A DNA stretch of 62,510 bases, the filler included. It is 7 parts of 7 records of this genome, joined end to end, with 100 filler letters (N's around TTAATTAATTAA, not from the genome) between each part and the next. Parts side by side here need not be neighbours in the genome. Positions count along the whole stretch, not along the records: positions 1 to 16,276 come from SRR31156797_70581; 6 more parts are not named here. One strand, 5' to 3'. This document shows, piece by piece, positions 1 through 16,276 of this stretch. Both the position numbers and the translations under genes were made by a program. Below the pieces are notes generated by a model. It was not told where the DNA came from. It did not search any database and saw only the letters and a program-made list of their open reading frames with translations. Numbering within the stretch: the stretch's first letter is position 1; each line of letters opens with the position of its first letter.

Positions 1-11
1 GTTTGGTTTAT

Positions 12-81: not shown

Positions 82-170
82 AGTTTTTTCGTTAATCCGC
101 GATGAGCCATTTTTCCTCACGCGTATCATGGAATGAGCGCTGAAGTATCCCTCATGTTTAAAAAAACCCC

Positions 171-298: not shown

Positions 299-1090
299 AT
301 GAACATCATCGTGTTGGTCAAACAGGTTCCCGATACCACGGAAATCAAACTGGATCCCAAGACGGGGAATTTGATTCGGGAGGGGATTGAAAGTATTATG
401 AATCCGGACGATCGGCATGCCCTGGAGGCGGCGGTCGGCTTAAAAGAATCCATGGGCGGCAACGTAACGGCGGTGTCCATGGGGCCGCCCCAGGCCATTG
501 ATGTGATTACCGAAGCCATGGGTATGGGTGCGGACAGGGGCATTTTGCTGTCGGATGGCGCTTTTTCCGGAGCGGACACCTGGGCCACATCCTTGACCCT
601 GGGAAAAGCAGTGGAAAAAATCGGTGATTATGACCTGATCATTTGCGGAAGGCAGGCCATTGATGGTGACACGGCCCAGATCGGCCCCCAGGTGGCCGAC
701 CATCTGGGCATTCCCCATGTGAGTTATGTGTTCCGTATTGAAGAGATCACGGAAGAGCGCCTGGTGGTCCGGAGACGCCTGGAAGACGGCTTCGAACGGA
801 TTGAAACACCCGTGCCGGCCCTTCTGACGGTAATCGGGGAGTTGAACTCCCCCCGTTATGCGGTGGTGGGCCGTTTGATTGAGGCGTGCGGGGAAAAAGC
901 GCCCATGGAAATCTGGAATGCGGCGGATATCGGCGCCAAAACGGACGAAATCGGCTTGGAAGGATCCTTGACCCATGTGATCAAAACCTTTGCACCCAAA
1001 TTCAAACGGCAGGGTGAAATACTGGAAGGGGATGTGGGTGAAAGTATCGGCACCCTGCTGGGAAAGCTACGTGAGAATCGAATTGTATAA
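299..1090 (+). CDS. etfB: Electron transfer flavoprotein beta subunit
   Basis: KQVPDT, MNPDD, GADTWATS and GRQAIDGDTAQIGP motifs. Start placed at ATG 299 after GGAG. Confidence 0.95.
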   Translation: MNIIVLVKQVPDTTEIKLDPKTGNLIREGIESIMNPDDRHALEAAVGLKESMGGNVTAVSMGPPQAIDVITEAMGMGADRGILLSDGAFSGADTWATSLTLGKAVEKIGDYDLIICGRQAIDGDTAQIGPQVADHLGIPHVSYVFRIEEITEERLVVRRRLEDGFERIETPVPALLTVIGELNSPRYAVVGRLIEACGEKAPMEIWNAADIGAKTDEIGLEGSLTHVIKTFAPKFKRQGEILEGDVGESIGTLLGKLRENRIV

Positions 1091-1118
1091 TCGAATGGCT
1101 GATTAAAGGAGATAAAAC

Positions 1119-2315
1119 ATGACTGTATGGATTGACGCTGATCTTTGCAACGGGTGCAAACTCTGCGAAAAGGCGTGTCCCTATGAGGGTGTTGAAATGA
1201 GGGACGGAAAAGCCCATATCCTGGAACGGTGCACCTCCTGCGGGGCCTGCATTGAAAGTTGCAAGCAGAAAGCCATTCTGACCGATGCCAAACCGAGGGA
1301 GATTCCCGATTTCAGTGACAGAGAGGGGGTCTGGGTGTTTGCCGAACAGCGGGGCGGCGTGTTGCATCCGGTCTCCCTTGAGCTGTTGGGAAAAGCCTGC
1401 GAACTGGCGGAATCCCTCAATCAGGAGGTGTCGGCCGTTTTGCTGGGCAATGGGGTGGAACATCTGGCGGAAAGGCTGATTCGGCATGGGGCCGACCATG
1501 TATATCTGGTTGAAGATCCTCGTCTTTTGCAATACCGGACCATGGTGTACACCCATGCCATGGAGCAGTTGATCCGACGGTTCAAGCCCAACATTCTGCT
1601 CATGGGGGCCACCCATATCGGCAGGGACCTGGCGCCGCGGGTGTCGCGACGGGTGGGGGTAGGCCTTACAGCGGACTGTACGGAGCTGATCATTGATCCG
1701 GAGGAAAAGATTCTTCTGCAGACGCGCCCCGCCTTCGGCGGCAATGTTATGGCCACCATCGCAAACCGATATTCCCGTCCCCAGATGGCAACGGTTCGGC
1801 CCGGGGTCATGGAGCCAAAGGAGCAGCCCGGAAAAAATGGAGATGTCGTTGGGGAAGCCCTTTCCATGGCTGAAGAGAAGATCAAAACAAGGGTTCTTGA
1901 AATTGTCAGGGAGGCCAAAAAAAGAGGGGATCTGAGCAAAGCAAAAATTATTGTTGCCGGTGGCAGGGGTGTTGGCGACGCCGGCGGATTCAAAGTCCTT
2001 GAAAATCTGGCCGGGGTCCTGGGAGGCCAGGTGGCCGGTACCCGTGTTGCGGTGGAAGAGGGGTGGATTCCCGCGGATCGGCAGGTGGGTCAGACCGGGC
2101 AGTCGGTCAGGCCCGAGCTTTACATCGCCTGTGGCATATCCGGAGCCATTCAGCATCGGGCGGGGATTGTAAATGCCCGGTACATTGTGGCCATAAACCG
2201 GGATGCCGGGGCGCCCATTTTTCAGGTGGCCGACTGGGGTATCGTGGGGGATCTGCATGAATTGGTGCCTGAAATGATTCGACAGTTGCAAAATGAGGGA
2301 GGGATGAATGCTTAG
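1119..2315 (+). CDS. etfA: Electron transfer flavoprotein alpha subunit with N-terminal 2x[4Fe-4S] ferredoxin domain
   Basis: CNGCKLCEKACP and CTSCGACIESC at the N-terminus; GLTADCT, RPAFGG, QVGQTG and GISGAIQH ETF-alpha motifs. Confidence 0.95.
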   Translation: MTVWIDADLCNGCKLCEKACPYEGVEMRDGKAHILERCTSCGACIESCKQKAILTDAKPREIPDFSDREGVWVFAEQRGGVLHPVSLELLGKACELAESLNQEVSAVLLGNGVEHLAERLIRHGADHVYLVEDPRLLQYRTMVYTHAMEQLIRRFKPNILLMGATHIGRDLAPRVSRRVGVGLTADCTELIIDPEEKILLQTRPAFGGNVMATIANRYSRPQMATVRPGVMEPKEQPGKNGDVVGEALSMAEEKIKTRVLEIVREAKKRGDLSKAKIIVAGGRGVGDAGGFKVLENLAGVLGGQVAGTRVAVEEGWIPADRQVGQTGQSVRPELYIACGISGAIQHRAGIVNARYIVAINRDAGAPIFQVADWGIVGDLHELVPEMIRQLQNEGGMNA

Positions 2316-3441
2316 GTCGAACGCCGAAACAACCATCAGAAAAAGCATGGCCATGTTCGTGGACAATGAAGTGGTTCCGCGGGCCAAGGAGATTGATGAA
2401 TCGGGTGAATTTCCAAGGGATATGTTCCGGGAGATGGCCAAGATGGGTGTCTTCGGCCTCAGGTATCCCAAGGACAGGGGCGGGGCCGGAGGAAATACCA
2501 CGCTTTTTTGCATTAGTTGCGAAGAGGTGGCCCGGGGACTCATGAGCCTTGCGGCCATTACGGCCATGCAGTCCCTCATGGGTACCAATTTCCTGTTTCA
2601 CTACGGAACCGATGAAATGCGGGAGAAGTATTTTCTCCCGGCCATGAATGGGGAGAAGGTGGCCTGCTTCTGCCTCACCGAACCCGAGGCCGGGTCCGAT
2701 TTGGGAAACGTCAGCACCCGGGCTGAAAAAACCGATGACGGTTACCGGTTAAACGGCATGAAAACATGGGTTACCAACGGTCCCGTGGCGGATTTCTACA
2801 CGGTGCTCATGCAGACGGACCCCAAAAAGAAGTTCAGGGGCCTCAATTTTTTCTTTGTGCCCAGGGATACCCCCGGCTTTTCCTGCAGCAAACCCTTTGA
2901 TCTTTTGGGAACCCGCAGCACCCCCATCTCCGAGGTCGCCTTCAAGGATTGCCTGGTCCCCCATACCCATATGCTGGGGGCCGAAGGGAAAGGTTTGAGT
3001 AACCTCTTGTCCATCCTGGCCGAAATCCGAACCATGACCGCGGCTCTCGCCGTGGGGCTCCAGCGCGCCGCCATGGACGATTCCATTCAGTATGCCCATG
3101 AACGGGCCCAGTTCGGACAGACCATCAGCAATTACCAGCTCATCCAGGCCAAGGTGGCCAATATGGCGGTGGATCTGGAAGCCTCCAAGCTGCTCACTTA
3201 CAAGGCCAGCCATATGATTGACGAGAAAAAAGAGGCACTTAAAGAAGCTTCCATGGCAAAGTATTTCGCCACGGAAGCCGCCACCCGTGCCGGCGATCAG
3301 GCCACGCGAATCCTGGGGGCCTACGCCTATTCCATGGAATATTCGGCCCAGCGATACTACCGGGACAACCGTTTTCTGCTCTACGGTGGCGGGACCCACG
3401 AGATTTTACAGCCCAACATCGCCAAGTGGGTGGGGCTGTAG
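2308..3441 (+). CDS. Acyl-CoA dehydrogenase
   Basis: FCLTEPEAGSD, NGMKTWVTNG, RAQFGQ and YGGGTHEI motifs; overlaps the etfA stop. Confidence 0.93.
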   Translation: MLRSNAETTIRKSMAMFVDNEVVPRAKEIDESGEFPRDMFREMAKMGVFGLRYPKDRGGAGGNTTLFCISCEEVARGLMSLAAITAMQSLMGTNFLFHYGTDEMREKYFLPAMNGEKVACFCLTEPEAGSDLGNVSTRAEKTDDGYRLNGMKTWVTNGPVADFYTVLMQTDPKKKFRGLNFFFVPRDTPGFSCSKPFDLLGTRSTPISEVAFKDCLVPHTHMLGAEGKGLSNLLSILAEIRTMTAALAVGLQRAAMDDSIQYAHERAQFGQTISNYQLIQAKVANMAVDLEASKLLTYKASHMIDEKKEALKEASMAKYFATEAATRAGDQATRILGAYAYSMEYSAQRYYRDNRFLLYGGGTHEILQPNIAKWVGL

Positions 3442-3471
3442 GATTGCGGATTATAAGGAAGGCATCGGGGT

Positions 3472-4221
3472 ATGAGTGGCACCGCGGATCGGGAAGAGAT
3501 GGGTATGAAGGGCTTCATGGCTTTGCCGGAAAGAAGGTCCCTGGGCCAGTCCGTTTATGAAAACCTGAAAGAGGCCATAATCGAGGGGACCCTTGTCCCC
3601 GAAAGCCGTGTGGTGGAAACCCGTTTTGCCGAAGCGCTGGGCATCAGCCGGACCCCCGTTCGGGAAGCCATGCATAAACTGGAACGGGAAGGGTTGCTTC
3701 GGCAAGACCCCAAGGGCGGCTTTTATGTCATCGGTCTGACCCGCGCGGATATCGAGGAGGCATTCGGCATTCGGAGCGTATTGGAAAGTTATGCGGCCCG
3801 ATTGGCAACCATCCGCCATGAGGAGGGGGAGTTGGCGCCCCTGGAGGAGAAACTGGCGGAGTACCGGGACTGCCTTGGCCGGGGCCACGTGGAGGAACTT
3901 TCGCGCATCAATACCGATTTCCACGATCTTCTCTACAGTCTCAGCCGAAGTCCCAAACTGGTGAAGATGATCAACGATATCCGGGTCCAGATTTTCCGTT
4001 TCAGGCAGGTTATCCTTAGAATAGAGGCCATGGCCCGTACCAGCAATGAGGATCATCTGTTGATGATGGATGCCATCCGGGCAAGGCGGGCGGATCGTGT
4101 GGAGCGGCTGGTGAGGGAACACATTCTCCGCGGCCAGGATATTGTGCTGCGGGAATTTGATATAATGTCCGTCAAGGCAGAAACCGGAAAATTGACAAAT
4201 GATGTCAAAAAAGGAGTGTAA
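3472..4221 (+). CDS. GntR-family (FCD) transcriptional regulator
   Basis: wHTH LGISRTPVREAMHKLEREG; FCD domain NTDFH...DH. Exact start uncertain (3472, 3499 or 3505). Confidence 0.92.
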   Translation: MSGTADREEMGMKGFMALPERRSLGQSVYENLKEAIIEGTLVPESRVVETRFAEALGISRTPVREAMHKLEREGLLRQDPKGGFYVIGLTRADIEEAFGIRSVLESYAARLATIRHEEGELAPLEEKLAEYRDCLGRGHVEELSRINTDFHDLLYSLSRSPKLVKMINDIRVQIFRFRQVILRIEAMARTSNEDHLLMMDAIRARRADRVERLVREHILRGQDIVLREFDIMSVKAETGKLTNDVKKGV

Positions 4222-4226
4222 TTGCT

Positions 4227-4625
4227 ATGGGAAAAAGAAAAATACGGGTGCTGCTGGCAAAACCCGGCCTGGATGGCCATGACCGGGGGGCCAAGGTGGT
4301 GGCCCATGCCATGAAGGAAGCCGGAATGGAGGTCATCTATACCGGGCTTCACCAGACCGTTAAGAGTATCGTGAACCAGGCCCTTCAGGAGGATGTGGAC
4401 GTGATCGGTCTTTCCATTATGTCCGGCGCCCATATCCCCATCTGCACCAAGTTGGCGGGCTTTACCAAGGAAGAAAAAATTGAGGACAAGCTGTTGGTGG
4501 TGGGCGGCGTCATTCCCAACAGGGATATCCAGGTTTTAAAGGGGATCGGCGTGGACGGGGTATTTCCGGGGGGCGCGCTTTTTGAGGAGATCGTTTCGTT
4601 TATTGAAGAAAACACACACCACTGA
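4227..4625 (+). CDS. Cobalamin-binding small subunit of acyl-CoA mutase
   Basis: LAKPGLDGHDRGAK (DxHxxG), IGLSIMSGAH, VGGVIP. Confidence 0.95.
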   Translation: MGKRKIRVLLAKPGLDGHDRGAKVVAHAMKEAGMEVIYTGLHQTVKSIVNQALQEDVDVIGLSIMSGAHIPICTKLAGFTKEEKIEDKLLVVGGVIPNRDIQVLKGIGVDGVFPGGALFEEIVSFIEENTHH

Positions 4626-4693
4626 ACCCTTTGTCCAGGGAGCCGCAAACTTGTACCATAACCGGTGATCAATACAATCATTAAGGGGATATC

Positions 4694-6322
4694 ATGGGAG
4701 TCGCAACATATATTAAAGACGAAAAGGATGCCGTCCAAAAGGTCCTTCTGCAGTCGGGCATCGAGGTGAAGCCCAGCTACACGCCGGAAGATCTTGAACG
4801 GGTCGGTTTTAATTATGAAACGGATCTGGGGGATACGGGAGAGTTCCCTTTTACCCGCAGCATCCATCCACAGGGGTACCGGAGCCGGAACTGGACCACC
4901 CGCCAGTACACCGGTTTCGGAACGCCGGAGGAGACCAACGAGCGGTTCAAGCTGATGATTTCCCACGGGCAGAACGGATTGAACGTGGCTTTCGATCTTC
5001 CCACCCAGATGGGGTACGATTCCGATAATGAATTGGCGGAAGGGGAGGTGGGGCGCGTTGGCATGGCCATCGATTCCCTGAGGGATTTCGAGATCGCCTT
5101 CAAGGATATCCGGCTCAATCGCATCGGTACGGGCCTCACCATCAATGCGGTGGCGTCCATCATGCTGGCCATGTATCAGGCCGTGGCTGAAAAATTCGGG
5201 TACAAAAAAACCGAGATCTCCGCAACACCCCAGAACGATATTCTAAAGGAGATTGTGGGGCGCGGGGCCTGGATTTATCCCGTGGAACCGGCGGTCCGGC
5301 TCATCGGGGACACCATTGAGTACGCCATGGCCGACCTTCCCCGCTGCAATCCCGTTTCCATCTGCGGCTACCACATCCGGGAATCGGGCTGCACCCCGGT
5401 CCAGGAGATTTCCTATGCCTTCATGATCGCCTTTGCCTACATGGACAATGTCATCGCCCGGGGGTACAAGGCGGAAGATTTTGTGGCGCGCTTTTCCTTT
5501 AACCTCAATATCTACGGGAACCTCTGGGAGACGGTGGCCAAGTTCAGGGCGGCCCGGAAGTTGTGGGCCAAACTCCTCCGTGAAAGATATGATGTGCAGA
5601 ACAAGAAAGCCCTTTTCCTTCGGGGGATTTTCGGTGGCGGCGGTTCGGGCATGACCAAACAGCAGCCGGAAAATAATATCATGCGGGGGGCCTATTATGC
5701 ACTGGCGGCGGCTTTATCCGGGGCACAGACAACGGCCCTCTGCTCCTTTGACGAGGCGTATACCATTCCCACCGAACGGGCGGCATTACTGTCACTCCGG
5801 ACTTTCCAGATCCTGATGGATGAAATCGGGTTGAGGGATACGGTGGATCCCCTGGCCGGAAGCTATTTTGTGGAGACCCTCACCAAGGAGATGGAACAGA
5901 GTATCCTTGAGGAAATGGAGAAGGTGGAAAAAGTGGGGGGCATGGTGGAAGCGGTCTCCAGCGGATATGTCCAGAGCGAAGTGTCACGCCAGGCCTATGA
6001 GTACGAAAAAAAGTTGCAGAAGGGTGAAATCGTCAAGGTGGGCGTCAACAAATACACCGAAGGCGTGGACATGGAAGTGGAACTCCATGAATACAATGAT
6101 GAATGGGCCCAGTTGCAGATCAGAAGGCTCAAGGAACTGAAACGGGACCGGGATGGTGCGGCGGTCAACACGTCCCTGAAAGCCCTTGAAAAGGCGGCCC
6201 GGGAAAAGAAAAATGTGATGCCTTACCTGGTGGAATGCTGTAAAAGCTATGCTACGGTAGGCGAAATGGCCGATATCTTCAGGGATGTGTTCGGTGAATA
6301 TGTGGAACCGAATATTTTCTAG
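4694..6322 (+). CDS. B12-dependent acyl-CoA mutase large subunit (methylmalonyl-CoA mutase family, divergent)
   Basis: GEFPFTR, WTTRQYTGFG, AFDLPTQMGYDSD, QNDILKE, GYHIRE and DPLAGSY motifs; no fused B12 domain. Confidence 0.92.
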   Translation: MGVATYIKDEKDAVQKVLLQSGIEVKPSYTPEDLERVGFNYETDLGDTGEFPFTRSIHPQGYRSRNWTTRQYTGFGTPEETNERFKLMISHGQNGLNVAFDLPTQMGYDSDNELAEGEVGRVGMAIDSLRDFEIAFKDIRLNRIGTGLTINAVASIMLAMYQAVAEKFGYKKTEISATPQNDILKEIVGRGAWIYPVEPAVRLIGDTIEYAMADLPRCNPVSICGYHIRESGCTPVQEISYAFMIAFAYMDNVIARGYKAEDFVARFSFNLNIYGNLWETVAKFRAARKLWAKLLRERYDVQNKKALFLRGIFGGGGSGMTKQQPENNIMRGAYYALAAALSGAQTTALCSFDEAYTIPTERAALLSLRTFQILMDEIGLRDTVDPLAGSYFVETLTKEMEQSILEEMEKVEKVGGMVEAVSSGYVQSEVSRQAYEYEKKLQKGEIVKVGVNKYTEGVDMEVELHEYNDEWAQLQIRRLKELKRDRDGAAVNTSLKALEKAAREKKNVMPYLVECCKSYATVGEMADIFRDVFGEYVEPNIF

Positions 6323-6323
6323 G

Positions 6324-6400
6324 CTCTTAGCCTTTAGCTGTTAGCCTTTAGCATTTAGCATTTAGCTGTTAGCTAATGGCTGAAAGCTAACAGCCAGCAG
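6324..6400. repeat. Intergenic heptamer tandem/inverted repeat element
   Basis: Seven CnnTTAG units (6324-6372) followed by reverse-complement-type units CTAATGG, CTGAAAG, CTAACAG, CCAGCAG. Confidence 0.85.
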
Positions 6401-6488
6401 CTTATTCATAATGAAAGGAGGTGAAACATCAAGTCCACGGTGTACGCTGATTCATCGCTATGAAACCCGATTAGAGGAGGTCCGAATC

Positions 6489-7508
6489 ATGAAAAAAAAG
6501 ATTGGATTTGTATTGGCTATAGCCTTTATCGCAGCAATATTTACAATTACCGTGAACACGGCACCCGCAGCAGCAGGACCGATCAAATTGAGCTATGCTC
6601 AATTTGCACCCCCCAAAACCTTTGTAGGCGTGCAGCTTGAAAGATGGATTAAAGAGGTCGAAAAGCGCACGGGCGGCAAGGTTAAGATAGACGCGTTTCA
6701 TGGCGGAACGCTACTCGGTGCAAAAAACATGATGGACGGTGTTATTGCCGGAACAGCAGATATCGGAACGCTTTGCATGGCTTACCAGCCGGGCCGTTTT
6801 GTTATCACCAATGCCACCAGCCTTCCTCTCGGGTTTCCCAATGCGCGCGTGGCCTCCCTGACGCTCACCGATCTTTATGAAAAGTATAAACCAAAAAGCT
6901 TTTCCAAAGTAAAGGTCCTGTGTATGTATACGTGCGGACCTTCAAACATCATGAGCAAAATACCCATAAGAAATTTGGCGGATATGAAAGGCGTGGATTT
7001 GCGTGCCTCCGGCGGCGCTGCCCAGATTCTGAAGGCGTGGGGCGCCAACCAGGTGGGTATGCCCATGTCCGCAGTGCCGGAAGCCCTGCAAAAGGGCGTG
7101 GTCAAGGGCCTGTTTTCATCGTTGGAGGTCATGAAGGATTTTAAGTTTGCCGAAAGCTGTAAATTTATCACCATGACGAACACGGTTATCTATCCCTTTG
7201 CCGTGGTCATGAACAAGGCCAAGTGGGATTCCCTGCCAAAAGATGTTCAGAAGGTTATGAATGATCTTGTCAGGGAACACTCCGAATGGACGGGGGCCTA
7301 CATGGACAAGCATATCGTAGAAGCCGTTAAGTGGTCCAAAGAGAAAGAGGGGGTCGAGGTGATCAACCTCCCCGAAAGCCGAATGGCCAAATGGAACAAC
7401 CTCCTTACGCCCATTACGGCCAAATGGATCAAGAACACAACCGCAAAAGGGTATCCGGCTGACGCCATCGTGACCGACATCAAGGCGTTCATGAAAAAAT
7501 ACGAATAG
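6489..7508 (+). CDS. dctP: TRAP transporter substrate-binding protein
   Basis: Signal peptide MKKKIGF...AAAG; KRTGGKVKI, GTLLG, EALQKGVVKG, MNKAKWDSLPKDVQ. Start at ATG 6489 after GAGGAGG. Confidence 0.92.
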   Translation: MKKKIGFVLAIAFIAAIFTITVNTAPAAAGPIKLSYAQFAPPKTFVGVQLERWIKEVEKRTGGKVKIDAFHGGTLLGAKNMMDGVIAGTADIGTLCMAYQPGRFVITNATSLPLGFPNARVASLTLTDLYEKYKPKSFSKVKVLCMYTCGPSNIMSKIPIRNLADMKGVDLRASGGAAQILKAWGANQVGMPMSAVPEALQKGVVKGLFSSLEVMKDFKFAESCKFITMTNTVIYPFAVVMNKAKWDSLPKDVQKVMNDLVREHSEWTGAYMDKHIVEAVKWSKEKEGVEVINLPESRMAKWNNLLTPITAKWIKNTTAKGYPADAIVTDIKAFMKKYE

Positions 7509-7710
7509 AAAACGGCATTTTGTGGACTTCGGGAGATATTTTATCCCGGGTCCACAACCCATCACCCAATGACCGGACCATCATGGGAAACCGAGCGGGG
7601 TTTCGTCATTGGCGTTCTTGATTTATGTTGGAATCTGGAATTTCTCATATTGCGTTGATGGATACCGTCAACGGAACCATTGCCGGGGATGTGGTCACGG
7701 GAGGCTTTAT

Positions 7711-8205: not shown

Positions 8206-9506
8206 ATTTAATCATGGTTGGAATCATTGGAATCGTTATCCTTCTCCTTGTATTATTCCTGCTCGGGATGCCGGTCGGCTTTGCCATGGGAGTTGTGGGA
8301 TTCTGTGGTTTTGCCTATATCGTTTCTCTGAAGGCCGCTTTCAGCATGGTGGCCATTGATATATGGACCACGTTCTCAAGTTATGGGCTCACTGTAATAC
8401 CGCTCTTTATCCTGATGGGATACCTTGCATTTAATTCAGGAATAGCTGAAAAACTTTACAACACCGCCTATAAATGGGTGGGTCACTGGAGAGGGGGATT
8501 GGCCATTGCCACAATTGCTGCCGATGAGCTTTTTGCTGCAATCTGTGGTTCCAATACCGCCACGGCCGCCACCATGGGCGCAATAGCCCTGCCCCAGATG
8601 AAAAAATATGGTTACGACACGAAACTGAGCAGCGGCACCGTTGTTACCGGAGGTACCTTGGGGACGGTTATGCCCCCCAGTGTCCTCCTCATTATTATCG
8701 GCCTTCAGACTGAACAATCCATCATAAAGCTCTTCCTTGGCGGAATTTTACCCGCTATACTCTTGGGCATTCTGTTCGTATTAACCATTATTATTCTTTG
8801 TTGGATCTATCCCGAGTTTGGTCCTGCCGGGCCAAAGACGTCTTTCAAGGAAAAAATAAAATCCCTTACCGGCGTCCTAGAGGCAATAGCCATATTTGTA
8901 CTGGTCATAGGAGGCTTGTACTTCGGCATATTCACCCCTACGGAAGCAGGCGCTGCAGGCGTCTTTTTAACGCTTTTAGTGACCGTCCCGACCGGTAAGT
9001 TGAAGTGGAAAGGGATTCTGGATTCCATGAGGGACACCCTGAAGATATCATGCATGGCGCTTGTTCTTGTTACGGGAGCCCTGATTTTCGGTCGTTTCCT
9101 GGCGGTTACCAGGCTCCCCTTTATTGTTGCGGATTTTGCAGCTTCACTTCCCGTATCCCCTTACATCATTCTGGCCTTCGTTCTGATGATCTATTTAATC
9201 GGCGGCTGTTTTGTGGACGCATTGGGCTTCCTGGTGCTCACAATACCCATCTTCTTTCCCCTTGGAATGGCCCTTGGGTTCGATCCCCTGTGGTATTCAA
9301 TCATCATTACAATGGTGACAACATTGGGAGCGATTACACCGCCTGTAGGTGTCAATATATATGTCGTTAAAGCCCTGGCTCCGGAAATAGAGCTGGGCAC
9401 GATTTTCAAAAGCGCCAGTTATTTCTTGGCAGCCTGTATTTTATGCATAATAATTTTAATAATCTTCCCTGATATTGTGTTAATTATTCCGAATATGGCA
9501 AATTAA
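8202..9506 (+). CDS. dctM: TRAP transporter large permease
   Basis: IPLFILMG, GTLGTVMPPS, FTPTEAG, ITPPVGVN; highly hydrophobic. Confidence 0.95.
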   Translation: MNLIMVGIIGIVILLLVLFLLGMPVGFAMGVVGFCGFAYIVSLKAAFSMVAIDIWTTFSSYGLTVIPLFILMGYLAFNSGIAEKLYNTAYKWVGHWRGGLAIATIAADELFAAICGSNTATAATMGAIALPQMKKYGYDTKLSSGTVVTGGTLGTVMPPSVLLIIIGLQTEQSIIKLFLGGILPAILLGILFVLTIIILCWIYPEFGPAGPKTSFKEKIKSLTGVLEAIAIFVLVIGGLYFGIFTPTEAGAAGVFLTLLVTVPTGKLKWKGILDSMRDTLKISCMALVLVTGALIFGRFLAVTRLPFIVADFAASLPVSPYIILAFVLMIYLIGGCFVDALGFLVLTIPIFFPLGMALGFDPLWYSIIITMVTTLGAITPPVGVNIYVVKALAPEIELGTIFKSASYFLAACILCIIILIIFPDIVLIIPNMAN

Positions 9507-9561
9507 ACGATAGTAATGTAGATTCTTTCAAAGTGCTTATAGGTTTTTCATAGGAGATCAT

Positions 9562-10764
9562 ATGAAGCCCAACTATGCCGAAAAGGGCGCCGAAAGATAC
9601 CTTTCAGGTGAATTTGAGCCTTTTGATGAAAAATACATGATGTTCCGACGGGTTATGTGGGATATGCCGGAATTGGCCAAAAAACTCTATTTTACCCCGA
9701 AGATGCCCGATGAAAACAAGCCGGGTTATACCATACAGGACAATGCCTTTAGGAACGCGACCTGGGATCTTGAACGGGATTTTGGAACGGGCAACCGAGG
9801 CGGCAAGCAGATGCTGCTGGACTGGGACAGACCACCCAAAGGAGAATTCGCTCCGCCACCCGGATTGAAAATTTCCATCAACGACCGGCACAGTTTGACC
9901 CATGATTTGAAAAAGATTGCCAGGTTTATGGGGGCATCTTCCGTGGGTGTGAGTGAGTTGGACAGGCGTTGGTTATATTCTCACGCCTACTATCCTGATA
10001 TCCGTAATCCTTTTGAAAAAGGGAAAGAATTGACTGAGGAGGAGATAACCGCCGGGATCAGTGAAAAAATTGAGATACCAGGTGAATATAAATATGCCAT
10101 CGTCTTTGCCATAGCCATGGACTACGATCTCGTGAAGTATTCTCCCAGCTACACCAGCGGTGCCGGTGCAGGGCTTTGTTATTCAAAAATGCCCCTGATT
10201 GCTGCAATGGTGGCCCAATATATCCGAGGACTGGGTTATAAGGCAATTCCAATGGGTAATGATACGGCTTGCTCCATTCCCCTGGCCATTGATGCCGGGC
10301 TGGGTGAATTGGGGCGCAATGGTGTGCTCATTACCCCGGAGTTCGGTCCAAGGGTTCGCATCAGCAAGGTCTTTACTGATTTACCCTTGATTCCCGATAG
10401 ACCCATTGAATTCGGGGTCTGGGATTTTTGTATGGAATGCGGGAAATGTGCCAAAGAATGTCCCAGTCAAAGTATTTCCCATGACGCGCCAACCACGGAA
10501 ATATGTAATGTGTCCAACAGGAAAGGCTTATTCCGATGGCCCGTAAACGGCGAGAAGTGTATTGCCTTCTGGGAACGCAATCGGTCGTGTTCATGCCTTA
10601 ATTGCGTGCGAGTTTGCCCTTTTAACAAGCCGTCCAATATTTTGCATGAGACTGTCAAATGGACGGTGAAAAAAACCCGCAGGTTTAACTCTTTATTGAT
10701 TTGGGGGGATGATTTTTTTGGGTATGGAAAAAAACAGAATCCCGCCGGGTTTTGGAATCATTAA
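9562..10764 (+). CDS. rdhA: Reductive dehalogenase-family corrinoid/Fe-S protein without Tat signal
   Basis: ARFMGASSVG, ELDRRWLYSH, PLAIDAGLGELGRNG, FGPRVRISKVFTDLPL, CMECGKCAKECP and C...CLNCVRVCP. No RRxFxK signal and no adjacent rdhB. Confidence 0.85.
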   Translation: MKPNYAEKGAERYLSGEFEPFDEKYMMFRRVMWDMPELAKKLYFTPKMPDENKPGYTIQDNAFRNATWDLERDFGTGNRGGKQMLLDWDRPPKGEFAPPPGLKISINDRHSLTHDLKKIARFMGASSVGVSELDRRWLYSHAYYPDIRNPFEKGKELTEEEITAGISEKIEIPGEYKYAIVFAIAMDYDLVKYSPSYTSGAGAGLCYSKMPLIAAMVAQYIRGLGYKAIPMGNDTACSIPLAIDAGLGELGRNGVLITPEFGPRVRISKVFTDLPLIPDRPIEFGVWDFCMECGKCAKECPSQSISHDAPTTEICNVSNRKGLFRWPVNGEKCIAFWERNRSCSCLNCVRVCPFNKPSNILHETVKWTVKKTRRFNSLLIWGDDFFGYGKKQNPAGFWNH

Positions 10765-10851
10765 ATGGCATGGATTAAATGCTTCATTGAAAGAGATATC
10801 CGTAATCTACCCCGGGCAAGGGTCTTTCCATTTAAATTGAGGTGAGAAAAT

Positions 10852-12144
10852 ATGACCAAAAGTTTTATGCCTTTAGTCAAAAGCCATGATGAGTTGCTGG
10901 ATCTTCAGCTTAAAGGTTTGAAATGGACCGTAAATCACGCATTTAACGGATCCGAGTTTTACAAAAATAAGATGGCTGATGCGGGGATTTCTCCAACAGA
11001 TATCAGATCCCTCGATGATATTGAAAAACTCCCTTTTACAACATCCAAAGATCTGCAGGAAGGGTATCCGTTCCCACTTTTATCCGTTCCTTTTGAACAA
11101 GTCGTTCGGCTTCATGCATCGTCCGGTACCACGGGAAAGAAAAAAGTCCTTTGTTACACCCGGAAAGATATTAGGGATTGGGCCCATTTTTTTGCACGCT
11201 GTTATGAAATGGCCGCTTTGATTCCCGAAGACCGGGTTCAAATTGCGGTGGGTTACGGTGTTTGGACGGCTGGTGTCGGTTTCCAGTTGGGATGCGAGGA
11301 GTTTGGCGCAATGGCGATCCCGGCTGGCCCTGGAAACATGGATATGCAGTGCCAGTTTCTGGAGGATTTTCAGACCACGGTTGTGTGCTCAACCGCCTCC
11401 ATGGGGCTTCTAATGGCCGAGGAGGTGAATAGACGTGGAATCAGGGAAAAAATTAATCTCAAGAAGATTATTTTTGGATCAGAGCGATCCAGCGATGCCA
11501 TGAAAAGGCAGGTTATAGATCTTTTAGGTGTTGAACATCTGTTTGATATCCCAGGGATGACTGAGCTTTACGGTCCAGGAACAGGGTTGGATTGTGTTCA
11601 CCACAGCGGAATCCATTACTGGGCCGATTATTATATCATTGAGATTCTGGATCCGGATACGCTTTTACCGGTGCCTGAAGGGGAGGTTGGGGAAATGGTT
11701 GTGACAACCTTGGCAAAAGAGGCGGTTCCCCTTATCCGATATCGAACGCGAGATCTTACAAGGCTGATCCCCGGCACGTGCCCTTGCGGTTCCGTCCTGC
11801 CGAGACATGATCGAATCTTAGGACGCTCCGACGACATGATCATTTTCAGGGCCGTCAATATCTATCCCGGTCAGGTGGATCACGTTCTGTCGGATATTGG
11901 GGGGATCGGCAGCGAGTACCAGATTATCGTGGATCGAAGGGAAGACGGCCGGGACCACATGCGCATAAGAGTTGAAGGGGCCATAGGGGTTGACGCGCAT
12001 CGGTTTGAGGAACTGGAAAAACGGATTTCCCGGGAAGTCAAAAAACAGATCATGGTGAGCGCCGCGGTGGAAATGGTGGAATACGGTATCCTGCCGAGAT
12101 CGGAGAGGAAAAGCAAGCGGGTGTTTGACAACCGGGAAGAGTGA
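10852..12144 (+). CDS. Phenylacetate-CoA ligase-like (PaaK family) aryl-CoA ligase
   Basis: HASSGTTGK, PLIRYRTRD, GRSDDMII, RKSKRVFD. Confidence 0.92.
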   Translation: MTKSFMPLVKSHDELLDLQLKGLKWTVNHAFNGSEFYKNKMADAGISPTDIRSLDDIEKLPFTTSKDLQEGYPFPLLSVPFEQVVRLHASSGTTGKKKVLCYTRKDIRDWAHFFARCYEMAALIPEDRVQIAVGYGVWTAGVGFQLGCEEFGAMAIPAGPGNMDMQCQFLEDFQTTVVCSTASMGLLMAEEVNRRGIREKINLKKIIFGSERSSDAMKRQVIDLLGVEHLFDIPGMTELYGPGTGLDCVHHSGIHYWADYYIIEILDPDTLLPVPEGEVGEMVVTTLAKEAVPLIRYRTRDLTRLIPGTCPCGSVLPRHDRILGRSDDMIIFRAVNIYPGQVDHVLSDIGGIGSEYQIIVDRREDGRDHMRIRVEGAIGVDAHRFEELEKRISREVKKQIMVSAAVEMVEYGILPRSERKSKRVFDNREE

Positions 12145-12173
12145 AATGGAGATTTCGGAATGGGAGAAAACGG

Positions 12174-12194
12174 CTAAGAGCTAACAGCTAACCG
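12174..12194. repeat. Heptamer repeat (CTAAnnG x3)
   Basis: CTAAGAG CTAACAG CTAACCG in the intergenic gap. Confidence 0.7.
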
Positions 12195-12204
12195 GAGAGA
12201 ATGG

Positions 12205-13653
12205 ATGAAACCTTACGCATATTACCAGCCCCGAAGCCTTCGTGAGGCCTTCGGGTTGATGGAAAAATTCCAAGGACGGGCCCGGTATGTGGCGGGCGGT
12301 ACCGATGCCATGATACGGGTCAAACAGAAGATCTGGCAGCCCGAAGCCCTCATTTCCCTTCGATGGATTGGGGATCTGTATGGGATCGAGAAAACCGGTA
12401 CTTCCAAAGCCCGGGCCCTGAGCCTCGGCAGTATGACCCTGTGGCGGGAGGTTGAAACGGATCCTTTTGTGGCGCATCACCTTCCCGCCTTGGCGGAGGC
12501 GGCAAGCATGGTGGCCAATCCCCAGATTCGGAATGTGGCCACCGTGGGGGGGAATTTATGTAACGCCGCCCCTTCGGCCGACGGGGCTCCGCCGTTGATG
12601 GTCATGGAAGCGGTCTTGACCATTGCGGGTCCCCATGGCGCAAGGGATGTGCCCATCTCGGAATTTTTCAAGGGGCCGGGACAACACTGCATGGCTCCCG
12701 GTGAACTGCTGACGGCCGTTACCATTCCCGAAATGGACCTGAACACCGGCGTGGCGTTTCTCAAATCCGGGCGGGTGAGCCAGGATATTGCCCTTGCCAA
12801 TGTGGCGGTGTATCTGCAGATGGAGAACGGGGTTTGTAACAAGTGCCGTGTTTCGGCCGGGGCCGTGGGGCCCGTACCCCTGAGACTTCCGGGGGTGGAA
12901 GCCCTTGTGGAAGGAAAAGAGATCACCCCGGATCTCCTTTTGGAAATCCAGGATAAGGCAGCCTTTGAAGTGACCCCCATCACCGATGTGAGATCCACCG
13001 AAATTTATCGCAGGACCGTCACCGGCGTGATGGTGAAACGGGCATTGGAGCAGGCCCTTGTTCAGGCCAAGCGGAAATCCGAAAGCCGGGATGCGAATGC
13101 GTCCCATGGGGAGCCGCAAGGTGTGGATACCATGGAACCCACGGTGGGCCCGTATGATTCCCCCCTTCGCAAACTGGTCCGCTTTCATTTGAATGGACAT
13201 GCCGTTGAAGCGGAAGTGATGAGCCACAAGATGCTTTCAAATGTTCTGCGGGATACCTTTGAATTCACCGGGACCAAGGAAGGATGCGGTCAGGGGGAGT
13301 GCGGCGCCTGTACGGTACTGGTGGACGGGGAAAGTGTTAATTCATGCCTTTATCCCGCATTTGAGGTGGACGGAAAAAACGTAACCACCATTGAAGGCCT
13401 CGTGGGTGAAGGGAACCGATTGGATCCCATACAGGAGGCGTTTGTGGAAAGCGGAGGCGTTCAATGCGGTTTTTGCACCCCCGGCATGATCATGAGCGCC
13501 AAAGCCATGTTGAACAAAAACGCCCGCCCCACGGAAGAGGAGATTCGAAAGGGGATTTCCGGAAATCTCTGCCGCTGCACCGGGTATGTGCAGATTGTTG
13601 AGTCCATTAAAGGGGCTTCGCGGATGCTTGGGGCGAATGATGCAAAGCCTTGA
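12205..13653 (+). CDS. Xanthine dehydrogenase-family FAD subunit fused to [2Fe-2S] subunit
   Basis: AGGTD, QIRNVATVGGNLCNAAPSAD and DVRST (FAD part), then GTKEGCGQGECGACTV, QCGFCTPG and NLCRCTGY (FeS part) in one frame. Confidence 0.92.
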   Translation: MKPYAYYQPRSLREAFGLMEKFQGRARYVAGGTDAMIRVKQKIWQPEALISLRWIGDLYGIEKTGTSKARALSLGSMTLWREVETDPFVAHHLPALAEAASMVANPQIRNVATVGGNLCNAAPSADGAPPLMVMEAVLTIAGPHGARDVPISEFFKGPGQHCMAPGELLTAVTIPEMDLNTGVAFLKSGRVSQDIALANVAVYLQMENGVCNKCRVSAGAVGPVPLRLPGVEALVEGKEITPDLLLEIQDKAAFEVTPITDVRSTEIYRRTVTGVMVKRALEQALVQAKRKSESRDANASHGEPQGVDTMEPTVGPYDSPLRKLVRFHLNGHAVEAEVMSHKMLSNVLRDTFEFTGTKEGCGQGECGACTVLVDGESVNSCLYPAFEVDGKNVTTIEGLVGEGNRLDPIQEAFVESGGVQCGFCTPGMIMSAKAMLNKNARPTEEEIRKGISGNLCRCTGYVQIVESIKGASRMLGANDAKP

Positions 13654-13673
13654 TGGGTGCGGTTGGAAAATAG

Positions 13674-13782
13674 CTATTAGCGGTTCGCGCTATTAGCTCT
13701 TAGAAACGAAAAAGATAAATTTTTATCCACAAGCGAAAAGCTAACCGCTAAAAGCTAATGGCTAAAAGCTAATGGCTAAAAG
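13674..13782. repeat. Intergenic heptamer inverted-arm element
   Basis: Left arm of CTnTTAG units (13674-13703), central imperfect palindrome GATAAATTTTTATC, right arm of seven CTAAnnG-type units (13734-13782). Confidence 0.85.
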
Positions 13783-13790
13783 CCAGAGGT

Positions 13791-16259
13791 ATGAATATGA
13801 CCCAGTTTAATTTTATCGGTGCCGAAGTCCCCAGACCCGATGCTCCGGACAAGGCCGCCGGAAAGGCCATGTATATCCATGATATGACGCGGCCCGGAAT
13901 GCTGTACGGAAAGATCAAGTTCAGTGAATACGCCCATGCCCGCATTAAGCATATCGACACATCCCGAGCCGAAAAACTCCCCGGGGTCCGTGCGGTCATT
14001 ACCGCCTACAATACGCCGGAGATCCGAATCGGATTCATCAAGGATAATTTTGCCCTGAAACGGGACAAGGTGAGGCAGTTCAGGGATGAAGTGGCGGCCG
14101 TTGCGGCCACGGACCCGGATATCGCCGCGGAAGCCATCGACCTGATCCGGGTGGAGTACGAGGAACTTCCGGGCGTTTTTTCCCCCACACAAGCCCTTGA
14201 AGAAGGTTCTCCCATCGTCCACGAGACCGATCTCAAAGGGCGGCCCAAAACGGACAACATGGTTCCGGTGCCGTGGAAATTTGTAACCGGTGATGTTGAA
14301 AGGGCCAGGGATGAGGCGGCCCATGTGGTTGAGGAAAATTATACCACCCCGCTCATACAGCAGTCCTGCATGGGGACCGCCGGCTGCATCGCGGAGTTTG
14401 ATCTCCAGAGCAACCTGATCATCCGCACCAAGACCCAGATCCCCTTCCTGGCCCAGAACGATTTCAACCAGGCTCTCAGGGATATGGGGCTCAAGGGGAA
14501 AAAAAGCAGGGTCATTGTGCCCACCCTGGGGGGATCCTTCGGTACGGGCCTGGACACCCACAGCTATGAATTCATCTCCATCCTTCTGGCCTACAGGACC
14601 GGCAGGCCGGTCAAGATGGTCCTGAACCGTGAGGAGGAATTCACGGCCCTTTCTCCCCGTCAGCCCACGGAAACCCACATTATACAGGGTTGCGACCGAA
14701 ACGGTAAAATGGTGCTGCGGGACATTAAAATGGTGCTGGACAACGGCGCCTACACCTCCTGGGGCGCCACCACGCCCAGTGTCATGATGATTCCCGCCTC
14801 TTCCATATACCGGGTGCCCAATGTTCTGTTCAGGACAACCATTGTCTACACCAACAACACCTATTGTCAGGCCATGAGGGGATACGGTAATCCCCAGGTG
14901 GCATGGGCCATGGAAAGCAACATGGACCAACTGGCCGAGGCCGCCGGCATCGATCCCTTTGAATTCAGGAAAATCAACAGCAATATTCCCCATGAGACCA
15001 CCCCCATGGGCCTCAAGGTCTCCACCTGCGGCATGAAGGAGTGCCTGGAATCGGTGGCTGAAAAGCTGGACTGGAAATCCCTCTGCGGAAAGAGCGACCT
15101 GAAGCGCGGCTCCGCCCATGCGTGTACGACCCTTGTGGGGAGCACGCCGGCAAAGGCCAGGGGCGTGGGGATGGCGGCCCTCTTCCACGTGGGGGGGTCC
15201 GGCCGGGTGTACCGATCGGACGGGTCCGGTATCATTTTAAAGATCGATGACTTTGGCGATGTTTCCGTGGTGTCCGGCGGTATTGAAATGGGACAGGGCT
15301 TTGATTCGGCCCTGGCCCTGGCCACGGCGGAGGCGCTGGGGGTCACTGAAGACCGTGTGAAGGTCATAACGGGGGATACGGCCACCTGCCCCTGGGATGT
15401 GGGCACCCACGCCAGTCGCGGCGCCTTTACAGCCTGTAATGCCAGTATTATGGCGGCGGAAAAGGCCCGGAAAAAAATTTTTGAACTGGCCAGTGAGCAT
15501 TTCATGCTCCGGGTTAAGAGCCGCATGAAAAAGATGAAACGAAAAGACCCGGATTTCGAGATTCCCGATCTGGACTATGAGACCCTCTTCGATCCATCGG
15601 ACTTTGACATGAAGGAAAATCGCATTTTTCTGAAAAAAGAACCCGATGATCCCGATCTCCACGTGACCCTGGAGGAGATCCTCCGGGCCGCCCACTACAA
15701 GGAGCAGGGGACCATGGTCATTGAAGAAGCCTTTTATGATCCCCCGAACCAGATGCTGGATGCCAGGACGGGGCGCGGCAACATGAGTTCAACCTATATT
15801 GTGGGCGCCCAGGGGGCCGTGGTGGAGGTGGACCTTGAAACGGGAAAGGTGGAAATTATGAAAGTGGCCGCGGCCCATGATGTGGGTCAGGTGTTGAACC
15901 GGCAGACCATCAAGGGACAGATTTACGGGGCCCTTGCCCAGGGGATCGGGTACGCCCTCTCCGAGGAGTATAAAACCCATAAGGGGCGGAACCTGAACCC
16001 CAATTTTCTCGATTACAAGATCCTCTCGGCTCCGGACCTCAATTTCCCCATTGAGATTGATTGCATTGAAACCCACGATAAAACGGGTCCTTTCGGTGCC
16101 AAGGGGGTGGGTGAGCCTGGTCTGGTCCCCACGGCGCCGGCCATCGGCAATGCGGTTTACGATGCCATCGGTGTCCGCATTCGGGATCTGCCCATCACCC
16201 CGGAGAAGATCCTGGCCGCATTGGATGAGAAGAGAAAAAAGCAAGACGCTAACAGCTAA
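13791..16259 (+). CDS. Xanthine dehydrogenase-family molybdopterin-binding large subunit
   Basis: TQIPF, GGSFG, AMRGYG, EMGQG, HASRG and AKGVGE (catalytic Glu). Confidence 0.95.
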   Translation: MNMTQFNFIGAEVPRPDAPDKAAGKAMYIHDMTRPGMLYGKIKFSEYAHARIKHIDTSRAEKLPGVRAVITAYNTPEIRIGFIKDNFALKRDKVRQFRDEVAAVAATDPDIAAEAIDLIRVEYEELPGVFSPTQALEEGSPIVHETDLKGRPKTDNMVPVPWKFVTGDVERARDEAAHVVEENYTTPLIQQSCMGTAGCIAEFDLQSNLIIRTKTQIPFLAQNDFNQALRDMGLKGKKSRVIVPTLGGSFGTGLDTHSYEFISILLAYRTGRPVKMVLNREEEFTALSPRQPTETHIIQGCDRNGKMVLRDIKMVLDNGAYTSWGATTPSVMMIPASSIYRVPNVLFRTTIVYTNNTYCQAMRGYGNPQVAWAMESNMDQLAEAAGIDPFEFRKINSNIPHETTPMGLKVSTCGMKECLESVAEKLDWKSLCGKSDLKRGSAHACTTLVGSTPAKARGVGMAALFHVGGSGRVYRSDGSGIILKIDDFGDVSVVSGGIEMGQGFDSALALATAEALGVTEDRVKVITGDTATCPWDVGTHASRGAFTACNASIMAAEKARKKIFELASEHFMLRVKSRMKKMKRKDPDFEIPDLDYETLFDPSDFDMKENRIFLKKEPDDPDLHVTLEEILRAAHYKEQGTMVIEEAFYDPPNQMLDARTGRGNMSSTYIVGAQGAVVEVDLETGKVEIMKVAAAHDVGQVLNRQTIKGQIYGALAQGIGYALSEEYKTHKGRNLNPNFLDYKILSAPDLNFPIEIDCIETHDKTGPFGAKGVGEPGLVPTAPAIGNAVYDAIGVRIRDLPITPEKILAALDEKRKKQDANS

Positions 16260-16276
16260 CAGCTAACAGCTAACAG
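16249..16276. repeat. Heptamer tandem repeat CTAACAG x4, truncated by contig end
   Basis: Four exact units; the array supplies the stop codon of the upstream gene. Confidence 0.85.

Follow-up and report, generated by a model that had tools for sequence, protein, structure and literature searches.

The closest described counterpart of the locus discussed here is the anaerobic indoleacetate (iaa) operon of Aromatoleum aromaticum and Azoarcus evansii. As described in the accessible part of PMC8360864, it encodes a ligase (IaaB), a mutase (IaaGH), a dehydrogenase (IaaF), a CoA-transferase (IaaL, a phenylsuccinyl-CoA transferase), a binding protein (IaaM), and regulators. According to the same excerpt, IaaF is a decarboxylating benzylmalonyl-CoA dehydrogenase and represents a whole subclass of acyl-CoA dehydrogenases (ACADs) that have GGG for YEG and are found in iaa operons only. 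The excerpt also predicts iaa operons with an electron-transfer flavoprotein (ETF) in strict anaerobes, including strain NaphS2. The locus to be compared with these operons lies in a stretch of 62,510 nucleotides, called the window, which consists of seven contigs joined by N-spacers. It fills contig 1 (positions 1-16276), where genes of the iaa classes enclose rdhA, a gene for a reductive dehalogenase homologue.

The iaa cluster of Aromatoleum also includes a molybdenum (Mo) enzyme of the XDH family, and a hydantoinase/oxoprolinase-like pair reportedly opens the ring in this route. Judged from its sequence, contig 1 is probably a truncated iaa operon of the Desulfatiglandales/Desulfobacteraceae type. 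It would serve to convert indole-3-acetate, or a very similar arylacetate, to 2-aminobenzoyl-CoA, and it would have received rdhA within a foreign block, with a catabolic role for the RdhA protein. The core is a known iaa-type operon of strict anaerobes, and the novelty is the rdhA block.

Contig 1 contains 13 genes, all on the + strand, with intergenic gaps of -8 to 137 nucleotides (nt). Their classes were assigned with Pfam and NCBIfam profiles. The earlier note on this DNA had listed twelve co-oriented genes; its gene classes, strand, and coordinates hold, and only the count has to be raised. The genes are as follows.

299..1090 (open reading frame from 290), + strand: etfB, small subunit of a bifurcating-type ETF (PF01012)
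1119..2315, + strand: etfA, large ETF subunit with an N-terminal 2x[4Fe-4S] ferredoxin domain (Pfam ETF, ETF_alpha, Fer4)
2308..3441, + strand: ACAD with GGG replacing YEG (Pfam ACAD domains)
3472..4221, + strand: GntR/FCD transcriptional regulator within the operon (PF00392, PF07729)
4227..4625, + strand: mutS, B12-binding small mutase subunit (PF02310; TIGR00640, 137 bits)
4694..6322, + strand: mutL, large acyl-CoA mutase subunit (PF01642, 595 bits)
6411..7508, + strand: dctP, TRAP solute-binding protein (PF03480); likely true start 6489, followed by a signal peptide
7609..8205, + strand: dctQ, TRAP small membrane subunit (PF04290); likely true start near 7711
8202..9506, + strand: dctM, TRAP large permease (PF06808; TIGR00786, 311 bits)
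9562..10764, + strand: rdhA, cytoplasmic reductive dehalogenase homologue of 400 amino acids (TIGR02486, 252.7 bits)
10852..12144, + strand: PaaK-family arylacetate-CoA ligase, IaaB-like (TIGR02155, 389 bits; top PDB match 4r1l, 366 bits)
12205..13653, + strand: XDH-family FAD subunit fused to the [2Fe-2S] subunit (PF00941, PF03450, PF01799, PF00111)
13791..16259, + strand: XDH-family molybdopterin (Mo) subunit (Pfam MoCoBD_1, MoCoBD_2, Ald_Xan_dh_C)

Relatives of this gene row are common. A scan with the large mutase subunit, using one genome per species, gave 404 relatives. The best 80 loci (74-97% identity) were kept, and their gene content was read by tblastn of the 13 window proteins. These loci belong to metagenome-assembled genomes (MAGs) of Desulfatiglandales, Desulfobacteraceae, and Syntrophobacteraceae, and to the isolate strain NaphS2. 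Their recurring order is etfB-etfA-ACAD-GntR-mutS-mutL-dctPQM-PaaK-XDH(FAD/FeS)-XDH(Mo), without rdhA, and the GntR/FCD gene keeps an identical position. A complete set of the 12 non-rdhA genes was counted in 21 out of 33 loci, namely those that show the mutase with at least 4.6 kb before it and at least 9 kb after it. Such a shared arrangement is far from chance, and the search for synteny in Desulfobacterota that the earlier note had called for has now found the set again. In NaphS2 (L004) nine of the 12 genes are 77-94% identical to those of the window, and dctP and dctQ are 59-69% identical. Both the large mutase subunit and the ACAD have relatives in more than 120 database clusters from Deltaproteobacteria/Desulfobacterales MAGs, at 87-97% and 76-95% identity, respectively, among the matches listed.

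The loci also vary. Some are without TRAP genes. The [2Fe-2S] part is encoded separately in 24 loci, most of those that do not belong to the window's own subclade. Four loci have a further, long ligase gene of the AMP-binding type just after the mutase (L030 and L060, where it lies between mutL and dctP, L041, and L051), and L030 and L060 have an amidase upstream of the CoA-transferase. These extra genes show that several spacers of the operon can take up accessory genes, and that rdhA is not the only case.

With all these enzyme classes co-oriented on one contig, a wholly undescribed anaerobic pathway might be suspected, with the dehalogenase as an integral, conserved member, and the earlier note had proposed the pathway as undescribed. 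This is very improbable. The 12-gene core is widespread, and predicted iaa operons with ETF and an iaaF orthologue had already been published, NaphS2 being named in the accessible part of PMC8360864. RdhA cannot be kept as a conserved member of the set either, for tblastn detected no homologue in any of the 80 loci.

The ACAD provides the most specific link to iaa. Its best PDB match is CarC (6fah, 260 bits), and in a gap-free HMMER alignment with CarC its GGG sits on YEG, the replacement that marks the IaaF subclass. Of the 80 loci, 55 encode an ACAD of the GGG type; every one of the 55 locus homologues with 48% identity or more has the motif RFLLYGGG[TSA]HE. A FastTree phylogeny was built from 129 sequences, after rows shorter than 340 or longer than 420 amino acids had been dropped (28 of 150 representatives, among them P0437). 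In this tree, which included no reference IaaF, the window ACAD belongs to a clade of 14 rows with 99% support, 11 of them with GGG. The cluster representative P0437 also has GGG and is 48-49% identical to the window ACAD. Its C-terminal peptide nearly equals one implied by a reverse primer in the accessible part of PMC8360864, which is a hint only. Ten ACAD representatives that were looked up bore no Aromatoleum, Ferroglobus, or Rhodopseudomonas names. Against plasmids, tblastn of ACAD and mutase gave matches of at most 46%, and the single match whose surroundings were examined (H36, Diaphorobacter) does not lie in an iaa cluster. From its motif and setting the window ACAD is predicted to be a decarboxylating (2-aminobenzyl)malonyl-CoA dehydrogenase, like IaaF.

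In eight loci (L042, L043, L047, L048, L049, L052, L068, and L077) etfBA and the GGG ACAD are replaced by one or two canonical ACAD genes of YEG/GEG type, with about 30% identity. Regulator, mutase, TRAP, ligase, and XDH genes are kept there wherever the locus reaches, with the exception of TRAP and ligase in L047. These loci raise the question of what decarboxylates the mutase product in them.

The mutase subunits match PF02310 and PF01642 and adjoin the ACAD, as the two-subunit B12 mutase of an iaa operon does. The large subunit keeps the Tyr (RQY), Ala (VAFD), Arg (GRGAW), and GYH motifs of methylmalonyl-CoA mutase (MCM). The motifs are assigned to residue numbers according to the MCM and Hcm literature. 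Across the 80 loci, Tyr is found in 77, Arg in 79, and GYH in 79. At VAFD the residue is Ala, not the Asp of 2-hydroxyisobutyryl-CoA mutase. Since the carboxylate-binding Tyr, Arg, and His of MCM are kept, the substrate is likely a dicarboxyl-CoA, whose free carboxylate would fit.

These kept residues could equally belong to an ordinary housekeeping MCM located here by chance. High conservation (87-97% in at least 120 clusters) and the database annotation as methylmalonyl-CoA mutase point the same way. The scores and the surroundings make this explanation extremely unlikely. Against NF006944, the MCM equivalog profile, the large subunit reaches 455 bits with a cut-off of 876, and its top PDB match is HcmA (441 bits, vs 351 for human MCM). 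A Pfam search of the flank families that occur in at least two of the 80 loci revealed no MeaB, epimerase, or carboxyltransferase. What accompanies the mutase in most loci is a GGG-type ACAD, and its surroundings repeatedly include genes for CoA-transferase, ligase, XDH, and hydantoinase. By score and context, the mutase does not correspond to the canonical MCM that the earlier note had named as a refuting outcome. The large subunit is predicted to act as an arylsuccinyl-CoA/benzylmalonyl-CoA mutase, like IaaGH.

The ETF of contig 1 resembles bifurcating ETFs. EtfB has the motif DGDTAQIGP, also present in all 35 locus homologues, and EtfA has two CxxCxxCxxxC motifs, both of which occur in 45 of 48 homologues. 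DGDTAQ(V/I)GP is given as the signature of the second, bifurcating FAD in the accessible parts of PMC8958531 and of bioRxiv 10.1101/2022.02.02.478877. The top PDB match of EtfA is CarE (6fah_A, 397 bits, residues 5-392), vs 147 bits for human ETF. EtfB matches 5ol2_B (272 bits) and CarD (268 bits), vs 91 bits for human ETF. By sequence, then, the pair has both marks of group 2 bifurcating ETFs of the CarDE type, the EtfB motif and the EtfA ferredoxin domain. The physiological electron acceptor of IaaF is called an open question in the accessible part of PMC8360864. The survey of 80 loci makes the CarDE-like, bifurcating-type ETF carried by iaa clusters of Desulfobacterota a candidate for it.

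Two enzyme classes of the iaa route are missing from contig 1, which stops 17 nt past the stop codon of the Mo subunit and is followed directly by the N-run with the spacer (16277-16376). The earlier note had observed that the contig breaks right after its last gene, which is the case, and had warned that the break might hide iaa genes. Relatives bear this out. At least 700 nt past the Mo subunit are visible in 38 loci; in 28 of these, by tblastn and Pfam, hydantoinase A comes directly after it, starting at a distance of 0-430 nt. Within the window's own subclade, six loci extend this far, and each of them shows the same (L002, L003, L004, L006, L007, and L062), with Pfam confirmation (Hydant_A_N and Hydantoinase_A) in L002, L004, and L062. 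The next gene is hydantoinase B in L071 by Pfam, and tblastn matches place it likewise in L065 and L067. On the upstream side, 54 loci show at least 1.3 kb, and in 40 of them a gene for a family III CoA-transferase (CoA_transf_3) immediately precedes the cluster. On contig 1, which has no CoA-transferase, only 289 nt lie 5' of etfB. The other six contigs were searched for iaa genes and gave no hydantoinase and no family III CoA-transferase; on contig 7 only an unrelated AMP-ligase, an enoyl-CoA hydratase, and a TetR regulator turned up. Contig 1 and its relatives between them encode every enzyme class named for iaa in the accessible part of PMC8360864, and the Mo enzyme and the hydantoinase as well.

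The transporter fits an indoleacetate route as well. Along its whole mature length, DctP shares about 50% of its residues (309 bits) with PDB entries 4pgn, 4pgp, and 4nap, which we take to be Dde_0634 of Oleidesulfovibrio alaskensis G20. In its accessible part PMC9973260 names 4PGP and Dde_0634 together, and states that Dde_0634 binds indole-3-acetate. The ligand of 4NAP is a D-amino acid (PMC10443332). The closest PDB relative of DctP is 4n6d (371 bits). The earlier note had drawn an analogy with the iaa cluster; the GGG ACAD, the non-housekeeping context of the mutase in 80 loci, and the resemblance of DctP show a real likeness that goes beyond analogy.

A rather unlikely alternative is that the cluster degrades another arylacetate or arylsuccinate by the same enzyme logic, for example a phenylacetate derivative, 2-aminophenylacetate, or another N-heteroaryl-acetate. 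The ligase can be placed only in the PaaK family, its TIGR02155 score lying below the equivalog cut-off of 646. For the Mo subunit the nearest structure is HcrA, the alpha subunit of 4-hydroxybenzoyl-CoA reductase (1rm6_A, 347 bits, next best 212), with a TIGR03194 score of 525 bits, below the cut-off of 995. The XDH FAD part is closest to CO-dehydrogenase CutM, and no 4-hydroxybenzoyl-CoA reductase beta subunit is among its matches at 1e-25 or better. Together with the divergence of XDH genes described below, the eight loci with YEG-type ACADs, and the distance of DctP from the indoleacetate binder, a near-identical entry of which holds a D-amino acid, these matches leave room for such a substrate. 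The hydantoinase/oxoprolinase pair, on the other hand, suits an ATP-driven opening of an oxindole lactam. The restriction of GGG ACADs to iaa operons, as stated in the accessible part of PMC8360864, and the presence of all the iaa enzyme classes it names also argue for indoleacetate. For an iaa-type operon, the Mo enzyme is predicted to be a (hetero)aryl-acetyl-CoA hydroxylase.

The gene that sets contig 1 apart from its relatives is rdhA. It has a ribosome-binding site of its own, and its product, which looks intact, scores above the TIGR02486 cut-off of 160.35 and has two Fe-S motifs, as expected of an RdhA core. Its best structural match is PceA (4uqu, 230 bits), with both Fe-S motifs and the positions of Tyr246 and Arg305 kept; we take these two to be catalytic residues of PceA. 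The N-terminus shows no RRxFLK-type twin-arginine motif with a hydrophobic stretch, and no small membrane open reading frame that could be rdhB lies beside rdhA, its neighbors being dctM and the ligase gene. In these two points it departs from exported, respiratory RdhAB. Compared with NpRdhA (4ras) it gives 108 bits, residues 172-392 aligning to 389-608 of the 704-residue chain. A fused C-terminal NAD(P)H/ferredoxin-reductase module of the NpRdhA/BhbA type is absent from the 400 amino acids.

Cytoplasmic RdhA homologues without export signal or anchor, and with unknown substrates, are common in anoxic sediments, as the accessible part of PMC6129605 reports. For homologues without a twin-arginine signal in marine Desulfatiglans relatives and Dehalococcoidia it gives no known role, and it suggests a catabolic role for those of the Desulfatiglans relatives. 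Literature searches, none of them aimed at the point, turned up no report of rdhA inside an iaa cluster, which is not proof of absence.

In composition and in similarity, rdhA belongs to a block that differs from the rest of contig 1. The genes dctPQM-rdhA-PaaK have a GC content of 0.46-0.50 and a third-position GC content (GC3) of 0.52-0.59, and the flanks have 0.54-0.57 and 0.63-0.71. Between the window and the six closest loci, amino acid identity is 66-69% for DctP, 58-63% for DctQ, 77-79% for DctM, and 77-80% for the ligase. Among themselves these six loci show 87-98%, 77-96%, 91-98%, and 85-98%, respectively. In the flanking genes, the distance between the window and the six loci is no greater than the distances among these loci. 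Compared with L003, the nucleotide sequence is about 90% identical as far as the mutL stop, falls to 67% exactly there, and becomes similar again at about 12.0-12.3 kb. Repeats of GCTAACA type lie at both edges of the block (6323-6401 and 12165-12195) and recur further on:

6323..6401, no strand: array of GCTAACA-type 7/14-nt repeats, left edge of the divergent middle block
12165..12195, no strand: GCTAACA-type repeat, near the right edge of the divergent block
13725..13797, no strand: GCTAA-type 14-nt tandem repeats between both XDH genes
16240..16276, no strand: run of GCTAACA repeats that forms the contig end, where the operon is truncated

Repeats of 7 and 14 nt of the GCTAACA/GCTAATG type are found in several operon spacers in both orientations, and similar runs occur in spacers of some relatives, such as L003, L007, and L028. 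Those at the contig end probably caused the assembly break.

Two origins can be considered for this block of about 5.9 kb (from about 6323 to about 12200, dctPQM-rdhA-PaaK). Either it comes from a more distant, lower-GC lineage, or the assembler has joined two populations. In the second case contig 1 would be a chimera of two co-occurring populations with the same operon order, switched at repeat-rich spacers. The sharp shift of composition and identity at the mutL stop, with repeats there and near the right edge, would agree with this, as would a short contig from a metagenome-type assembly. Such a chimera is nevertheless improbable. One source contains both a 94% identical RdhA (P0241) and a 96% identical mutase (P0006), each with 19740 bases as its longest contig, which suggests, without proving it, an independent contig with both. 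Either way, rdhA stands between dctM and the ligase gene within one uniform stretch, so that the presence of rdhA in an iaa operon would hold even in a chimera.

Whether RdhA takes part in the pathway is a separate matter. It may be a passenger in a spacer of an iaa-like operon, serving as an electron sink for reduced ferredoxin or ETF, in detoxification, or in non-dehalogenating B12/Fe-S chemistry. This is possible, though doubtful. At the 42 visible dctM-PaaK junctions rdhA is never found, the match-to-match gaps of 96-524 nt leaving no room for it, and it is likewise absent from the 80 loci as a whole. Relatives of RdhA also thin out quickly, from 94% to 89%, then 78-63%, then about 50-57% identity. 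A passenger would further agree with the homologues without known role described in the accessible part of PMC6129605 and with a promoter-like site just 5' of the gene. Other features of the locus speak for integration. GC and GC3 of rdhA match those of the neighboring dctM and ligase genes, and the gene came in a block that replaces exactly the uptake and activation genes. It is co-oriented with its neighbors at gaps of 55 and 87 nt, and neither gap holds a terminator-like site on the + strand.

Because uptake, activation, and dehalogenase genes were replaced together, the role of RdhA is most likely catabolic, as the preferred reading of contig 1 has it. A halogenated substrate, which the earlier note had considered, is a reasonable proposal, and the exchange of transporter, rdhA, and ligase as a group favors it. 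More tentatively, the block may be a substrate-range cassette: a TRAP transporter, a cytoplasmic B12-dependent RdhA, and an arylacetate-CoA ligase would be swapped as a unit and open the operon to halogenated auxins and indoles such as 4-chloro- or bromo-indoleacetate. The two electrons for dehalogenation might then come from the ferredoxin-domain ETF and the XDH enzyme.

All steps of the proposed mechanism are drawn from family membership and context. DctPQM would import the acid, and the PaaK-like ligase would form its CoA thioester. The XDH-family Mo enzyme is expected to hydroxylate the hetero-ring, giving a product of the 2-oxo-indoleacetyl-CoA type. An ATP-dependent hydantoinase A/B, whose genes would lie past the contig break here and follow the Mo subunit directly in relatives, may open the lactam. 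A family III CoA-transferase, adjacent in most relatives and not in the own subclade, would shift CoA to the other carboxyl group. The B12 mutase would convert (2-aminophenyl)succinyl-CoA to (2-aminobenzyl)malonyl-CoA, which the GGG-type ACAD could oxidize and decarboxylate to 2-aminocinnamoyl-CoA. Its electrons would pass to the CarDE-like, bifurcating-type ETF with its ferredoxin domain. RdhA may act on a halogenated indoleacetate or arylacetate, or on the CoA ester, and strip off chlorine or bromine so that the product can enter the iaa route. The GntR/FCD protein presumably controls the operon, probably at a palindrome upstream of etfB.

Several observations weigh against reading contig 1 as an iaa operon with a catabolic RdhA. 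The accessible part of PMC8360864 calls the ETF of anaerobe iaa operons a "non-bifurcating" paralogue, and the bifurcating signature of the window ETF conflicts with this wording; either the wording refers to other operons, or it fails for this clade. GGG arose repeatedly, with 13 changes on the ACAD tree, so that the motif alone is not diagnostic of IaaF membership. The XDH genes form three divergence classes over the loci (Mo-subunit identity about 91-95%, 65-77%, and 33-55%), which could reflect different substrates. An adjoining CoA-transferase is found in none of the seven loci of the window's own subclade whose upstream region is visible; unrelated defence or housekeeping genes stand there instead. 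For RdhA, the gene is rare, and its substrate is not readable from the protein sequence. A sigma-70-like site at 9426-9454 (TTGGCA-17-AATAAT, 10/12), one of the two best such matches on contig 1, is contained in the 3' end of dctM, some 100 nt before rdhA, and could make rdhA and the genes after it an independent unit. Orthology to IaaB, C, F, G, and H of Aromatoleum is suggested by motif, context, and statements in the accessible part of PMC8360864, not by a tree. Finally, the literature consulted contained no report of growth on indoleacetate by any organism that carries the cluster.

If the cassette reading is correct, the RdhA homologues without a twin-arginine signal that are widespread among bacteria of anoxic sediments would be assigned to a pathway for the first time. 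This reading would also point to the CarDE-like, bifurcating-type ETF as the physiological acceptor of electrons that has long been sought for dehydrogenases of the IaaF type. An orphan RdhA between transporter and ligase of a recognizable pathway provides candidate substrates, namely halogenated indoleacetates or arylacetates and their CoA esters. The replacement of uptake and activation genes alone would be an example of a modular change of substrate range in a conserved catabolic operon.

Two further features lie upstream of the first gene.

67..93, + strand: terminator-like hairpin with T-run (stem 67-83, T-run after it; inverted repeat I3 at 11-82)
157..199, + strand: promoter-like region (promoter-like match 157-185; perfect 12-nt palindrome ACTGTATACAGT at 183-194)

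The hairpin is a remnant of a lost upstream gene and forms the 5' border of the operon. The palindrome core TGTATACA is found about 100-128 nt 5' of etfB in 8 of 35 loci, all from the window's own subclade. From this position ACTGTATACAGT is a candidate operator for the GntR/FCD regulator. Rfam profiles gave no match anywhere in the window, so no B12 riboswitch is assigned to it.

The other contigs carry unrelated genes. Contig 2 has a type I-C CRISPR-Cas operon at 17324-25926 (cas3, cas5c, csd1/cas8c, cas7, cas4, and cas1) with a GC content of about 0.41-0.45, far below that of contig 1; Tandem Repeats Finder detected no repeat array there at a score of at least 60. On contig 4 (35464-41959), a co-oriented gene row lies downstream of genes for a response regulator and an MMPL-fused histidine kinase. 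It encodes a CoA-binding protein similar to acetyl-CoA synthetase (ADP-forming), an FAD-linked oxidase, a CCG/4Fe-4S protein, a product without a family, and a radical-SAM protein. The oxidase and CCG/4Fe-4S genes resemble a glycolate- or lactate-oxidase-like set. Contig 6 (50312-55902, GC 0.38-0.44) has only three open reading frames of at least 100 amino acids in 5.6 kb, for a protein with an Lcl_C domain, a type IV pilin-like protein, and a product without a family; it has no Rfam match. Because composition differs widely across the seven contigs (0.38-0.63), they may not share one genome.

Comparison with known systems places the parts of contig 1 in different families. Like PceA of Sulfurospirillum multivorans (4uqu), the window RdhA keeps two Fe-S motifs and the Tyr246/Arg305 positions. 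Unlike PceA, it has neither a twin-arginine signal nor an RdhB gene, its N-terminus lacks about 60 residues, and its gene belongs to a catabolic operon. With NpRdhA of Nitratireductor pacificus (4ras) and BhbA of Comamonas it shares a cytoplasmic location without membrane anchor and a proposed removal of halogen for the degradation of a carbon skeleton. It differs from NpRdhA in its length (400 vs about 700 amino acids), in having no fused reductase module, and in its strict-anaerobe origin, and the 108 bits cover the RdhA core only. The RdhA homologues of marine Desulfatiglans relatives and Dehalococcoidia are cytoplasmic as well, with no assigned substrate or pathway context in the accessible part of PMC6129605.

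The CarCDE caffeyl-CoA reductase of Acetobacterium woodii (6fah) is matched by the window ACAD, EtfA, and EtfB, and the DGDTAQ-type motif is common to both. Unlike CarC, the window ACAD has GGG without the catalytic Glu, and it is predicted to carry out the oxidative decarboxylation of a 2-carboxy-acyl-CoA, not the reduction of an enoyl-CoA. Dde_0634, whose identity with 4pgn/4pgp/4nap is presumed here, is about 50% identical to the window DctP, for which 4n6d is a closer PDB relative.

The iaa operon itself differs from contig 1 in lacking rdhA and the foreign transporter/ligase block, and in that the window's own subclade has no adjacent CoA-transferase. Unlike the published anaerobe iaa operons, with their non-bifurcating paralogue according to the accessible part of PMC8360864, the window has a bifurcating-type ETF with a CarE-like ferredoxin domain. 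As in the strict-anaerobe operons of that excerpt, the ETF adjoins the ACAD. Contig 1 shares with the iaa operon a PaaK-family ligase, a two-subunit B12 mutase, a GGG ACAD, a solute-binding protein, and a regulator, to which its relatives add the family III CoA-transferase and hydantoinase A/B.

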